This document shows positions 15,517 to 18,841 of a DNA stretch of 24,000 nucleotides, piece by piece. The first letter of the stretch is position 1; every line of letters starts with the position of its first letter. The position numbers were made by a program, and so were the translations under genes. Origin of the DNA: Planotetraspora thailandica (GTDB lineage: Bacteria; Actinomycetota; Actinomycetes; Streptosporangiales; Streptosporangiaceae); assembly GCF_016863335.1 (NCBI RefSeq), contig NZ_BOOR01000055.1, positions 70,855-94,854 on the forward strand, in the 5' to 3' direction. The notes beneath the pieces are model-generated. The model saw nothing but the letters and a program-made list of their open reading frames with translations. It was not told the DNA's origin and made no database searches.

Positions 15517-16351
15517 CCACCACGGCGCGCACGGGCTCGGCGCCCGCGGCCTGTCCACCGGCTACGGCAGCGCCGTGGTCCTCGGCGACGTGACCCTCGA
15601 CGTGCCCGAAGGCAGGATCACCGCCCTGATCGGCGCCAACGGCTGCGGCAAGTCCACCCTGCTGCGCACCCTGGGACGCGCCCTCGACCCGCTCGGCGGC
15701 ACGGTGCTGCTCGACGGCGAGGACATCGCCACCCGGCCCCGGCGCGCCGTCGCCCGGCTGCTCGCCCTCCTGCCGCAAAGCCCGCTCGCCCCGGAAGGTC
15801 TGACCGTACGGGAGTTGTGCGGTTTCGGGCGGCATCCGCATCGGGGGATGTTCTCCCGTGACACGGCCGACGACCAGGCGGCCGTCGCACACGCGCTGAC
15901 GGCGGCCGGGCTGGACGATCTGGCCGACGTGCCGCTGCACCGCCTGTCCGGCGGGCAGCGCCAGCGCGCCTGGATTGCCATGGCCCTGGCCCAGGAGACC
16001 CCGATCATGCTGCTGGACGAGCCGACCACCTATCTCGACATCGCCCACCAGCTCGACGTGCTCAACCTGCTGGCCGAGCTGAACCAGACCCAGGGGCGGA
16101 CCGTCGTCATGGTGCTGCACGACCTCAACCAGGCGGCGCAGTACGCCCATCATCTGATCGCGGTGGCGGGAGGCCGGGTCCACGCCACGGGCAGCCCCGA
16201 CGAGTTGCTCACTCCCGAGCTGATCCGGGCCGTCTTCGGCGTCGAGGCCGTGGTGGTCCCGCACCCGGTGACCGGCACGCCTCTGTGCCTGCCGATCGCG
16301 ACAGGGCGCGCGGCCGAAGAGGGCGCCGACCCCGCCGAGGTGGGCGGCTGA
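15509..16351 (+). CDS. Fe-siderophore ABC transporter ATP-binding protein (FepC/FecE/FhuC-like)
   Basis: 280 aa with Walker A GANGCGKST, signature LSGGQRQR, Walker B IMLLDEPTTYLD and H-loop VLHDLN. The start overlaps the upstream stop (ATGCCTGA). Confidence 0.93.
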   Translation: MPDHHGAHGLGARGLSTGYGSAVVLGDVTLDVPEGRITALIGANGCGKSTLLRTLGRALDPLGGTVLLDGEDIATRPRRAVARLLALLPQSPLAPEGLTVRELCGFGRHPHRGMFSRDTADDQAAVAHALTAAGLDDLADVPLHRLSGGQRQRAWIAMALAQETPIMLLDEPTTYLDIAHQLDVLNLLAELNQTQGRTVVMVLHDLNQAAQYAHHLIAVAGGRVHATGSPDELLTPELIRAVFGVEAVVVPHPVTGTPLCLPIATGRAAEEGADPAEVGG

Positions 16352-16535
16352 ACCGGTCGCCCACCCGGTGCCGGCGACCATGCCGGGGACCGCACTCCCC
16401 GTCTGCTCGCCTCGCCCGGGTGGGCGCGGATGAGGCGCCCTCCCGCGGTCGGCGACCGCAAGGGGCAGATCCTCTCCGTTGCCGGCCACCCCGGGTCGTC
16501 GCCGGCCAGCCTCGCCTGTGGCAGGTGATGTGCCG

Positions 16536-16563
16536 GGGTGAGTGACGCTGCGGACGTCACCCC
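16536..16563. terminator. GC-rich hairpin just outside the left end of the IS element (possible bidirectional or orphaned terminator)
   Basis: GTGACG (16542-16547) pairs with CGTCAC (16555-16560) around a 7-nt loop. An outer GGG/CCC extension spans a 3-nt bulge. Confidence 0.35.
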
Positions 16564-16651
16564 ATAAGTGTCTGACAATATTGCTTGCAGTTCATCCGAT
16601 TTCGCGGTTCAGATGACTTTTGCCGGTCTTCAGCCTCATCGAGCGAGGAAC

Positions 16652-16671
16652 CCCGGGCGTTTACGTCCGGG
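16652..16671 (+). repeat. Left-end (LE) subterminal hairpin of the IS200/IS605 element
   Basis: CCCGGGCG-TTTA-CGTCCGGG forms an 8-bp stem (one G.T pair at position 6) with a TTTA tetraloop. It is preceded by CATCGAGCGAGGA (16637-16649). Confidence 0.75.
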
Positions 16672-16708
16672 AGGCGTCGCTTCCCTAACCTGGGCTTGTG
16701 TCCGGATG

Positions 16709-17141
16709 TCAGTCCGGGTGCTTTTGGTTGTCGATGTGCTCCTTGATGATCGACAGCGGAGCTCCTCCGCAGGAGGCGGCGAAGTAGGACGGGGACCAGA
16801 AATGGCCGCCCCACAGATACTTGCTGATATGGGCCGGGTACTCCTTGCGCAGCAACCGGGCCGAGACTCCTTTGAGGCTGTTGACCAGGCCGGACAGTGC
16901 GATCTGGCGGGGTAGTGGACCAGGAGATGGACATGGTCATGCTCGCCGTTGAACTCCACCAGCGTCGCGCCGAAGCTGTCGCACACCTCGATCATGATGT
17001 CTTCGCAGTGGCGCAAGATCTCGTCGGTGAATACCTTCTGCCGGTATTTGGGCGGGAGACCAAATGGGCGTGCGGGTTGTGGATGGCACTACGGCCTCGT
17101 CGAATATCGGGTTCGGTTTCCAGCCCGGTGACATGGGCCAA
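16709..17141 (-). pseudogene. tnpA: IS200/IS605 TnpA (Y1/HUH transposase) pseudogene, disrupted by two frameshifts
   Basis: Minus-strand homology is split over three frames. These read ...RRGRSAIHNPHAHLVSRP, then KYRQKVFTDEILRHCEDIMIEVCDSFGATLVEFNGEHDHVHLLVHYPA (HUH motif HVH), then QIALSGLVNSLKGVSARLLRKEYPAHISKYLWGGHFWSPSYFAASCGGAPLSIIKEHIDNQKHPD* (stop at 16709-16711). Frame changes occur near 17050-17060 and 16905-16912. The start (TTG 17141) is uncertain. Confidence 0.8.
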
Positions 17142-17159
17142 ACGGTAGTTTGTTCGATT

Positions 17160-18302
17160 GTGAGGCTGGTGGTGCAGGTGAAGCTCCTGCCGACGCCCGA
17201 GCAGGCGGCGGCGTTGGAGACCACGCTGCGTGCCGCCAACAAGGCCGCCGACTTCGTTTCGCGGGTCGCCTTCCAGCAGCGGTGTTTCCGTAACTTCGAC
17301 CTGCGTAAGCACACCTACGAGCAGGTCAAGACCGCCTACGGGCTGGCCGCGCAGGCCGCCCAGCACGTGATCAAGAAGGTCTGCGACGCCTATCGCACCC
17401 TGCATGCCAACCTGGCCGCCCGACACCTGGGCAAGCCAGGATCGGCGCGGCGGGTCAAGGCTGAAAGCAAACCGATCTCCTTCCGCCCTGCGGCGGCCCA
17501 GCCGTACGACGACCGGTGCCTGTCGTGGCAGCACGGAGACCGGACGGTGTCGATCTGGACGATTGCCGGGCGGCTGCGCGGTATCGCGTTCACCGGCTCG
17601 GCCCAGCAGTTGGCGCTGCTGGCCAAGCACCGTAAGGGTGAGTCTGATCTGGTGTGGCGGGAGGGCATGTGGTTCCTGCACGCCACCGTCGAGGTGGCGG
17701 ATGTCTCGATCACCGCGCCGGACGGGTTCCTCGGGGTGGATCTGGGCATCGCCAACATCGCTACCATCTCCGATGGGGTCCGGCACAGTGGCAAGGGCGT
17801 GAACGCGGTCCGGCATAGGCACCGTGAGCTGCGCCGCCGCTTGCAGGCCAAGGCCACCAGGTCGGCCAGGCGGCTGCTGAAACGGCGCCGTCGTAAGGAG
17901 GCCCGCTTCGCTGCGGACGTCAACCACAGCATCGCCAAGCAGATCGTGACCGTGGCAGAACGCACCGGGCAAGGGATCGCCCTGGAAGACCTTAAGGGCA
18001 TCCGCGACCGGGTACGGCTGCGCAAGCCCCAGCGGGTCACGCTGCATTCGTGGAGCTTCCACCAGCTGGGAGCCTTCATCGGCTACAAGGCGGCCCGGGC
18101 CGGGGTCGCCGTGGTCCACGTGGATCCGTCCTACACCTCCCAGCAATGCTCGCACTGCGGGCACGTGGACAAGAACAACCGGCCCGACCAGGAAACCTTC
18201 GCCTGTACGTCGTGCGGCTTCGCTGAGCACGCCGACGTCAACGCAGCCCGCAACATCGCCTCACGCGGTGAGGCGGGCTGGGCAGTGAGTCACGCTGCCT
18301 GA
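17160..18302 (+). CDS. tnpB: TnpB, the IS200/IS605-family RNA-guided DNA endonuclease (OrfB_IS605 plus zinc ribbon)
   Basis: GTG 17160 gives VRLVVQVKLLPTPEQAAALETTL..., matching the usual N-terminus of actinobacterial TnpB proteins; ATG 17133 and track start 17064 are alternatives. A RuvC-like triad is suggested by GVDLGIANIAT (D), IALEDLKG (E) and HADVNAARNIA (D). The zinc ribbon is CSHCG...CTSCG. There are no internal stops or frameshifts. Confidence 0.9.
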   Translation: MRLVVQVKLLPTPEQAAALETTLRAANKAADFVSRVAFQQRCFRNFDLRKHTYEQVKTAYGLAAQAAQHVIKKVCDAYRTLHANLAARHLGKPGSARRVKAESKPISFRPAAAQPYDDRCLSWQHGDRTVSIWTIAGRLRGIAFTGSAQQLALLAKHRKGESDLVWREGMWFLHATVEVADVSITAPDGFLGVDLGIANIATISDGVRHSGKGVNAVRHRHRELRRRLQAKATRSARRLLKRRRRKEARFAADVNHSIAKQIVTVAERTGQGIALEDLKGIRDRVRLRKPQRVTLHSWSFHQLGAFIGYKAARAGVAVVHVDPSYTSQQCSHCGHVDKNNRPDQETFACTSCGFAEHADVNAARNIASRGEAGWAVSHAA

Positions 18303-18380
18303 CGCGGACCGGACCGTCGACGCCATCGACGGCGAGGAGCTGCAAGCTCGGTCGTTTACGGCCGAGAAGCTGACAGTTTG
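18150..18380 (+). ncRNA. Candidate omega-RNA (reRNA) scaffold overlapping the tnpB 3' end and the right end; extent is a guess
   Basis: Inferred by analogy with characterised TnpB systems, where the guide RNA derives from the tnpB 3' end plus RE, with the guide read from flanking DNA. The only direct sequence support is the RE hairpin at 18347-18366. The 5' boundary cannot be seen in the sequence. Confidence 0.3.
18347..18366 (+). repeat. Right-end (RE) subterminal hairpin of the IS200/IS605 element
   Basis: CTCGGTCG-TTTA-CGGCCGAG has the same architecture as the LE hairpin: an 8-bp stem, a wobble pair at position 6 and a TTTA loop. It is preceded by CATCGACGGCGAGGA (18324-18338). Confidence 0.75.
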
Positions 18381-18841
18381 CGGCTGAGGACCGGGTCGGG
18401 GTGGTCCTCGAAACCGAGGCTCCGGTAGAGCCCCTGGCCGTCGGGGCTGGCGTTGAGATCCACCCGGCGCAGGCCGCGGCCCTCGAACCACGCGAGGAGA
18501 TCCTCCATGATCGCCCGGGCGTACCCCCGCTTGCGGTACGCCGGGTCGGTGACGACGCCGAAGACGTGACCGATCAGCCCGCCCGGGTTGTACGGCGTCG
18601 GCAGCCGCCGGTCGACGGCCCCGATCCCGCAGGCGGCCAGGCCCGTCTCGCCGTCGACGACGGCGATCCGCACACCCGTGTCGGCGACCTGCTCGGCCAG
18701 TGCCACCCTGCAGCGTTCCTCCCAGTCGTCCGCGCCGAGCGAGGCGGGTCCCCACACCGCGGCGAGATCGGAGAACAGCAGCACGCGGAGCCGTATCAGT
18801 TCGGCGACGTCATGGGGAGTTGCGGGACGCACGAGGACCAT
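18356..18841 (-). CDS. GNAT-family N-acetyltransferase; its 3' end runs into the IS right end
   Basis: ATG 18841 gives MVLVRPATPHDVAELIRLRV.... The GNAT motif-A region is GVVTDPAYRKRGYARAIMEDLLAWFEGRG...LYRSLGFE. The track start 18913 adds an Arg/Pro-rich extension that is probably not real. The stop TAA is the complement of 18356-18358, inside the RE hairpin loop. Confidence 0.85.
   Translation of the reverse strand: MVLVRPATPHDVAELIRLRVLLFSDLAAVWGPASLGADDWEERCRVALAEQVADTGVRIAVVDGETGLAACGIGAVDRRLPTPYNPGGLIGHVFGVVTDPAYRKRGYARAIMEDLLAWFEGRGLRRVDLNASPDGQGLYRSLGFEDHPDPVLSRKLSASRP

Follow-up and report, generated by a model that had tools for sequence, protein, structure and literature searches.

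A pair of same-strand hairpins as the very probable subterminal palindromes of an IS200/IS605-family insertion sequence in Planotetraspora thailandica

The analysed stretch of Planotetraspora thailandica DNA (24,000 nucleotides (nt) of contig NZ_BOOR01000055.1, positions 70,855 to 94,854 of the forward strand; hereafter the window, with positions counted from its first letter) carries two similar hairpins on its + strand, at a left end (LE) and a right end (RE). The hairpins are very probably the left and right subterminal imperfect palindromes of an ordinary IS200/IS605-family insertion sequence (IS), which occupies 1741 bp at 16634-18374 with the + strand as its "top" strand. The element is of the IS605 type with divergent tnpA and tnpB genes, and its extent was defined by the limits of blastn homology and by unrelated flanks. 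The proposal of an earlier note, made from the letters alone, that same-strand LE and RE hairpins define the ends of an IS200/IS605 element was borne out by the boundaries, the conservation and the gene content.

Related copies were collected by a TnpB protein scan with one genome per species, which resulted in 79 loci, mostly from Nonomuraea, Streptosporangium, Actinoplanes, Dactylosporangium, Micromonospora and Streptomyces (labelled with L numbers below). Window positions 16300-18700 were compared with these 79 loci by blastn. The alignments started at 16621-16629 where a left end exists and ended at 18374-18380 where a right end exists. When the right junctions were lined up, 28 copies read ...AAGCTGAC or ...AGTTGAC, followed by complete divergence. 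The terminus TGAC was present at 27 of the 28 right junctions (L056 differs) and in all 19 copies of the RE alignment (A2). At nine of ten left junctions the sequences were unrelated up to TTCAG and similar from there; L014 has lost the outer LE. The LE hairpin starts 23 nt inside the homology break and the RE hairpin ends 8 nt before it, and since the breaks lie just outside both hairpins, these are subterminal. Conservation running well past 16625 or 18385, which the earlier note had named as a sign of internal hairpins, was not seen, as it stops at 16629 and 18374. The same note had asked about copies that lack the hairpins; the retained ends of the relatives (roughly 30 LE and about 45-60 RE) carry them at the same places, and in decayed copies the LE hairpins are degraded or missing, as expected.

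The motif TTCAG (16629-16633, + strand) was found directly 5' of the LE, beside unrelated flanks, in 19 of the 23 aligned copies in register, from several genera, and in one more copy with an offset of 3 nt. The 18 nt between TTCAG and the LE stem vary among copies. The conservation of the motif together with the variability of the intervening sequence indicates a target motif rather than transposon sequence. TTCAG thus lies outside the element and was assigned, from the junctions, the empty site and the guide rule described below, as the target and putative left cleavage site (C_L, with the cut after TCAG). At the other end, the junction comparison places the RE tail AAGCTGAC (18367-18374, + strand) inside the element, and its last 4 nt, TGAC, form the transposon-encoded putative right cleavage site (C_R). 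The base that follows the RE varies, and TTCAG does not recur in the 3' flank AGTTT, which means that there is no target-site duplication. No long inverted repeat joins the two ends, and a repeat search within the window found neither a second copy of the element nor terminal inverted repeats.

On the + strand the LE reads CATCGAGCGAGGA-AC-CCCGGGCG-TTTA-CGTCCGGG at 16637-16671 and the RE reads CATCGACGGCGAGGA-GCTGCAAG-CTCGGTCG-TTTA-CGGCCGAG at 18324-18366, and the sequence read agreed with the earlier note in both strings and their positions. The left palindrome (IP_L) is the hairpin CCCGGGCG TTTA CGTCCGGG at 16652-16671 and the right palindrome (IP_R) is the hairpin CTCGGTCG TTTA CGGCCGAG at 18347-18366, both recognised from sequence, DNA fold and covariation. 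Each has, as previously described, a stem of 8 bp, a TTTA loop and a wobble at stem position 6, which is G.T in the LE and T.G in the RE. Both hairpins were present in the minimum-free-energy DNA folds of the + strand. In the folds of the - strand both were interrupted or weakened, the wobble being an A.C mismatch there; the wobbles render the hairpins specific to the + strand. They are the only TTTA-loop hairpins in the window, and they stand in the same orientation and flank tnpA/tnpB.

The stems of both hairpins covaried between copies that had been picked by script for a near-perfect hairpin. Among 19 such copies from several genera, the RE stem was 100% paired and six of its eight pairs were changed on both sides, compared with 30-46% pairing in slid controls. 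The RE stem variants were CTCGGTCG/CGGCCGAG, CCCGCCCA/TGGGCGGG, CCCGGGAC/GTCCCGGG, CCCGTCGC/GCGACGGG and CTCAGTCC/GGGCTGAG. For the LE stem, 97.3% of the cells were paired in 23 copies, with four of eight pairs changed on both sides. The earlier note had argued for selection on structure from the fact that the LE and RE stems differ and still pair; the selection is supported by the covariation between copies, and the argument is weak when taken alone. The "identical architecture" ascribed to the two ends was retained for the 8-bp stem and the TTTA loop. The shared wobble was not, as that of the LE is private to this copy (pair 6 is GC in 13, CG in nine and GU in one of the 23 LE sequences) and that of the RE is specific to the Nonomuraea/Planotetraspora clade (UG in seven, CG in six, GC in four and UA in two of the 19 copies). 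Judged from these sequences, the likeness of the two ends is partly coincidental. A CATCGA...GAGGA motif that had been seen as common to both ends proved not to be conserved: its distance to the stem is 2 nt in the LE and 8 nt in the RE, its LE version reads GTGATCTGGCGTGGA in most relatives, and its RE version belongs to another conserved hairpin (18314-18332), of which it makes up the loop and 3' arm.

Two conserved stretches of 4 nt, GAAC and CAAG, each adjoin a stem on its 5' side and would fit the role of DNA guides for TnpA. In IS608, C_L is situated outside the element, 19 nt 5' of the LE hairpin, and C_R inside, 10 nt 3' of the RE hairpin; both sites are recognised by 4-nt guides immediately 5' of each hairpin foot, and the right end requires only the guide G_R, IP_R and C_R (PMC3201880). 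The sets of IS608 are G_L AAAG with C_L TTAC and G_R GAAT with C_R TCAA, and the pairs A+16:T-3 and A+17:T-4 are documented (PMC5934647). The pairing scheme used here consisted of G1:C2 and G2:C1, taken from the documented IS608 pairs, and of G4:C4, deduced from both IS608 ends. The putative left guide G_L, GAAC (16648-16651, + strand), adjoins the foot of the LE hairpin on the 5' side and was proposed for its conservation and its complementarity to TCAG. The putative right guide G_R, CAAG (18343-18346, + strand), stands likewise at the foot of the RE hairpin and was proposed for its conservation and its prediction of TGxC as C_R. The stretch GGAAC 5' of the LE stem is conserved across genera, and CAAGC at the RE is invariant or nearly so in the 19 copies. 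When the scheme was applied to GAAC and CAAG, the sites TCxG and TGxC were predicted, and TCAG (16630-16633) and TGAC (18371-18374) were observed. All six guide/cleavage pairs fit at boundaries that had been mapped independently, for which the estimated chance is about (1/4)^6. The two positions at which C_L and C_R differ are matched by complementary differences in the guides. C_L lies 18 nt from the LE stem and C_R ends 8 nt past the RE stem. The complementarity follows the IS608 register, and by analogy TnpA would cut after TCAG on the left and after TGAC on the right.

The site of insertion was deduced from the neighbouring GNAT acetyltransferase gene (18356-18841, - strand), whose last five codons and stop (SASRP and the stop codon) are read from the IS right end according to the homologue comparison. 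GNAT homologues end in ...LSRK, L or R, and the stop at about 155 aa, whereas the window protein has 161 aa and ends in ...LSRKLSASRP (gene end at 18356-18376, - strand), and its stop codon sits in the RE hairpin loop. After deletion of 16634-18374 the GNAT strand reads CTC AGC CGC AAA CTC TGA with the stop restored at 155 aa; the closest homologue (74% identity) ends in CTC AGC CGC AAG CTC TGA. By this comparison the IS appears to have been inserted in the GNAT stop codon, the native ...CTC TGA being restored on its removal. The predicted empty site is GGTCTTCAG joined to AGTTTGCGGCTGAGG, i.e. GGTCTTCAG followed by AGTTTGCGG..., as a reconstruction. Other placements of the ends were tried and rejected. 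If TTCAG is counted within the IS, or if the target is TTCA or TTCAGC, the GNAT frame stays open without the native stop. Moving both cuts 1 nt leftward also restores the ending ...K L and the stop, but is at odds with the conserved final C of TGAC and with the pairing of G_R. On the other side of the element, a 277-bp interval (16352-16628) separates the IS from a FecE-type ATP-binding cassette (ABC) transporter ATPase gene. It contains an imperfect inverted repeat (16358-16387 and 16397-16426, 73% complementary), which may be the terminator region of the ABC operon.

The gene content of the element is that of an IS605-type IS with one gene preserved. The tnpB gene is intact (17160-18302, + strand); its start at GTG 17160 was set by homology to L001, and the NCBI annotation starts at ATG 17133. 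The product matched the Pfam families Cas12f1-like_TNB and OrfB_IS605, with 85.9 bits for PF07282 and 30.3 bits for PF01385 versus a cut-off of 30.5, and it passed NF040570 guided_TnpB with 211 bits versus a cut-off of 100. The RuvC D/E/D motifs GVDLG, ALEDL and ADVNAARNI and a CxxC...CxxC zinc finger aligned with solved Cas12f/TnpB structures, the alignment of the catalytic triad having been made with Cas12f 9nzq and related chains. From this alignment the protein is judged to be a TnpB with an intact RuvC catalytic triad and zinc finger. The best structure matches were Cas12f proteins (9nzq, E = 1e-29, and the 8j1j/8j12 group), and ISDra2 TnpB 8bf8 was matched with E = 5e-10. The NCBIfam Cas12f2 model gave 148 bits, which is below its cut-off. 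The actinobacterial TnpB clade may, by its sequence, sit near the Cas12f branch.

The tnpA gene (Y1/HUH transposase; 16709-17134, - strand) was found as a pseudogene split over three frames. The Pfam model Y1_Tnp matched one tnpA fragment only, including the HUH motif HVHLL, with 31 bits versus a cut-off of 23. Compared with the intact orthologues of L001 and L007, the gene has three 1-nt deletions, near 16903/4, 17054/5 and 17108/9; these could be assembly errors, though none is in a long homopolymer. The L001 orthologue passed NF033573 (IS200/IS605 transposase) with 143 bits. Judged from these sequences, the element type encodes a Y1 transposase and the gene of this copy is dead. Because of the three frameshifts the element cannot move on its own and would depend on another copy for TnpA. 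The stop codon of tnpA is straddled by a second LE hairpin (16698-16721, + strand), which is followed by TTTTGG and was flagged as terminator-like in the terminator scan. A hairpin at this position is also visible in L001 and L013, and a second LE hairpin has been described for IS608, ISDra2 and IS605 (PMC5934647).

The state of the related copies was variable. Many relatives (L002, L005, L006, L012, L027, L054, L056 and L066) are left-truncated or internally deleted with the RE module complete, and the right end seems to outlive the left end in decaying copies. In L012 the LE stands directly beside tnpB without tnpA, which is IS1341-like. The locus L068:2746-3283 (Nonomuraea sp. NPDC049480) is a deletion derivative of about 0.5 kb with both ends kept, and its LE and RE hairpin loops share the same 6-nt duplication (CGTTTACGTTTACG). 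Loop duplications were seen in the RE of L050 and L019 too. The parallel loop change of L068 possibly reflects an end-to-end conversion, a co-adaptation to TnpA or an artefact.

A longer covarying module has the RE hairpin as its last helix. This conserved structured module of about 100 nt (18274-18374, + strand) was defined by covariation and a covariance model and is predicted to be the 3' part of an omega-RNA scaffold. Its helix B (GGCAG/CTGCC, 18281-18285/18295-18299, + strand) encloses a conserved AGTCA loop and overlaps with the final codons of tnpB. Helix P2 (CCGTCGA/TCGACGG, 18314-18320/18326-18332, + strand) has a conserved NGCCA loop, and an outer P2 (18304-18306/18341-18343 and 18309-18310/18336-18337, + strand) was identified by covariation. 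P2 differs between genera with pairing kept (CCTCGC/GCGAGG, CCCCAC/GTGGGG, GCATCAC/GTGATGC). RNAalifold missed P2, which was defined from per-sequence folds and a script and then tested on the MAFFT alignment. In that alignment, which was not fitted to the structure, 97.7% of the module was paired versus 37-46% in slid controls, and 12 of 25 pairs were changed on both sides. With a 240-nt alignment, RNAalifold proposed a further upstream covarying helix within the zinc-finger coding region.

In 62 of 80 sources the covariance model of 98 positions gave exactly one match per locus; all matches are on the tnpB strand, and they end at the right end wherever that end was mapped separately. The match in the window (18274-18374) reached 102 bits, which is as high as in copies with an intact tnpA. 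In the alignment fitted to the model, 21 of 24 pairs covaried, and the RNA fold of 18225-18374 had a z-score of -3.7. The extra helices are best explained as an omega-RNA scaffold, since the IS608 TnpA needs only G_R, IP_R and C_R. The module is thus consistent with the 3' part of such a scaffold, the expression of which is predicted by analogy. A promoter scan showed no sigma-70-like site, which is uninformative for an actinomycete.

The prediction of the guide and of the transposon-associated motif (TAM) follows the known systems. ISDra2 TnpB binds an RNA that consists of the 3' part of the IS and about 16 nt of the 3' flank, and cuts beside a TAM identical to the 5' flanking target (PMC13565253); the donor-joint logic was described in a Geobacillus study (bioRxiv 10.1101/2023.03.14.532601). 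By analogy with the right-end element RNA (reRNA) of ISDra2, the omega-RNA guide would be about 16 nt, AGTTTGCGGCTGAGGA, at 18375-18390 on the + strand, in flanking DNA antisense to the last GNAT codons. The earlier note had let the guide begin at about 18370, which has to be corrected: the boundary lies between 18374 and 18375, AAGCTGAC is still transposon and the guide would start with AGTTTGCGG... at 18375. From this position on, the putative guide region is antisense to the GNAT 3' end, as the note had described it. From the left junction, TTCAG is predicted to be the TAM, and it falls within the range of about 16625-16637 in which the TAM had been expected. The literature searched for a TnpB that uses TTCAG or TCAG as its TAM contained nothing relevant.

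Taken together, the features suggest the following course of events. By analogy with IS608, a dimer of the Y1 TnpA would bind both hairpins in single-stranded form, and GAAC in the LE and CAAG in the RE would act as DNA guides which pair with TCAG and TGAC, respectively. The cutting would release a single-stranded circle, and the donor would be resealed as TTCAG+AGTTTGCGG.... The right end, transcribed in the tnpB direction, would form the last helix of the module of about 100 nt, and read-through past 18374 would append the guide of about 16 nt (18375-18390). TnpB would then be led by the guide to the resealed donor joint, beside the TAM TTCAG.

Several observations weigh against the assignment of the hairpins or parts of it. 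The hairpins are thermodynamically unexceptional at the G+C content of the window, their DNA fold z-scores (-0.47 for the LE and -1.89 for the RE) being not significant, and stability alone gives no support. The selection of copies by script inflated the percentages of paired cells in the hairpin stems, which does not apply to the variety of pair types, and the alignment with 21 of 24 covarying pairs was, as said, fitted to its own model. The G4:C4 pair of the guide scheme is an own reading of the published IS608 sequences. An orthologous empty site was not found: two GNAT-homologue loci were retrieved, neither of them syntenic, for which reason the empty site is a reconstruction and only the comparison of the 3'-end sequences was usable. 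A search of the whole window against Rfam at the gathering threshold gave no match, and when 16400-18600 was searched at E <= 5, the only match was a meaningless one to Chlorobi-1. The omega-RNA, its 5' end and its guide length are all read by analogy with known TnpB systems. Finally, the three frameshifts in tnpA and the private C-to-T change in the LE stem mean that this copy may be a fossil. Such a reading accepts the identification and takes the copy as an inactive relic, in which the hairpins and the RE module are idle and the guide is mere flanking DNA. It is a real possibility, although clearly short of an even one, and concerns the present-day activity, leaving the identity of the hairpins unchanged. 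The deletions relative to intact tnpA orthologues, the G.T at LE stem pair 6 in this copy only and the visible decay or truncation of many related loci are in agreement with it. On the other hand, tnpB is full-length with catalytic motifs, the RE module scores level with the copies having an intact tnpA, and the G.T wobble still pairs. Moreover, mobilisation of IS200/IS605 ends in trans is possible, and elements without tnpA as well as palindrome-associated transposable elements (PATEs) are common (bioRxiv 10.1101/2023.03.14.532601).

The remaining explanations concern the function or the very reality of the structures. It is improbable, although possible, that all the right-end structure serves TnpA and single-stranded DNA transposition, for instance the stability of the synaptic complex, with no omega-RNA involved. 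The RE hairpin, G_R and C_R fully fit the TnpA model, accessory secondary hairpins of IS608 stabilise TnpA binding (PMC5934647), and the lack of a match to an omega-RNA-type family in Rfam points in the same direction. This explanation is less economical than an omega-RNA scaffold: covariation across genera extends to three additional helices, which reach about 95 nt inward from the end and one of which overlaps the last tnpB codons. This exceeds the known needs of the IS608 right end (PMC3201880). The module, moreover, invariably lies in the sense orientation of tnpB and follows directly on an intact RuvC nuclease gene, as in TnpB reRNA/omega-RNA (PMC13565253). Intrinsic terminators, the RE hairpin serving the convergent tnpB and GNAT genes and the LE hairpin the upstream ABC operon or tnpA, would also be G+C-rich stem-loops in intergenic or 3'-end positions. 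A terminator function is nevertheless very improbable, as neither hairpin is followed by a T-run on either strand, the terminator scan flagged neither of them and chose the different hairpin at 16698-16721, and the hairpins travel with the element into unrelated contexts. The probability that the hairpins arose by chance in G+C-rich DNA is practically negligible. In the 24-kb window (69% G+C), 10 stem-loops on the + strand and 11 on the - strand combine an 8-bp stem containing no more than one wobble with a loop of 4 nt, and the fold z-scores mentioned above would allow such an origin. It is refuted by the comparative data, namely the positional conservation, the compensatory changes and the complementarity of guides and cleavage sites. 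What exceeds chance is the TTTA loops with their placement, the fixed distance to the shared homology breaks and the covariation of the stems across copies.

The assignment of the hairpins as the ends of an IS605-type element has value for annotation, as it gives the exact ends of such an element in Planotetraspora (16634-18374) and reveals that the annotated 161-aa GNAT protein carries a transposon-derived tail. It also provides a testable TAM (TTCAG), guide start (18375) and omega-RNA module for a TnpB clade spread across Streptosporangiaceae, Micromonosporaceae and Streptomyces, and it is a worked example in which the IS608 scheme of guide/cleavage-site pairing predicts the ends of a distant high-G+C relative. 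The known mechanism of IS200/IS605 elements is unchanged by this case. A more far-reaching proposal is that the element, lacking a functional tnpA, still encodes an active TnpB together with a conserved five-helix omega-RNA 3' module absent from Rfam and the G/C-containing TAM TTCAG, in a TnpB clade closer to Cas12f than to ISDra2 TnpB. The chance of this is put only a little below even; if true, a compact nuclease from high-G+C genomes would have a distinct class of omega-RNA and a distinct TAM specificity. More remotely, the RE-plus-guide transcript, which would be antisense to the GNAT 3' end, could affect the GNAT gene.

In comparison with known systems, the anatomy of the ends resembles that of IS608 of Helicobacter pylori (IS605 group). 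Both elements carry subterminal hairpins on one and the same strand at each end, and both lack terminal inverted repeats and a duplication of the target. C_L lies outside, 5' of IP_L (19 nt in IS608 and 18 nt here), and C_R inside, 3' of IP_R (10 versus 8 nt). The putative 4-nt guides stand in the same register (AAAG/TTAC and GAAT/TCAA in IS608; GAAC/TCAG and CAAG/TGAC here), and a second hairpin is found 3' of IP_L. The elements differ in the target, which is TTAC in IS608 and TTCAG or TCAG here, and in the stems, which in the Planotetraspora element are G+C-rich and 8 bp long with no obvious extrahelical T. In addition, tnpA and tnpB are divergent in Planotetraspora, tnpA is a pseudogene, and the element is known from sequence alone. 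With ISDra2 of Deinococcus radiodurans and the Geobacillus ISGst TnpB (obligate mobile element-guided activity, OMEGA) the element shares an RE after tnpB and a conserved structure spanning the tnpB 3' end and the RE. Here too the DNA that immediately follows the RE cleavage site on its 3' side would be expected to supply the guide, the TAM would be the TnpA target 5' of the LE, and the donor joint would consist of the TAM and the guide-matching flank. In contrast to the AT-rich TTGAT or TTTAT type of these systems, the predicted TAM holds G and C (TTCAG). The TnpB is only distantly related to that of ISDra2 and closer to Cas12f-type structures by the E values given above, and its RNA is a prediction. 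The resemblance to PATEs and to tnpA-less IS1341-type elements concerns the relatives L012, without tnpA, and L068, of about 0.5 kb with both ends; the copy studied here likewise depends on TnpA in trans, but differs in that it keeps a recognisable, recently decayed tnpA and a full tnpB. The element is a standard IS605-type member of the IS200/IS605 family, the end anatomy of which is closest to IS608 and the TnpB/omega-RNA logic closest to ISDra2 and ISGst.

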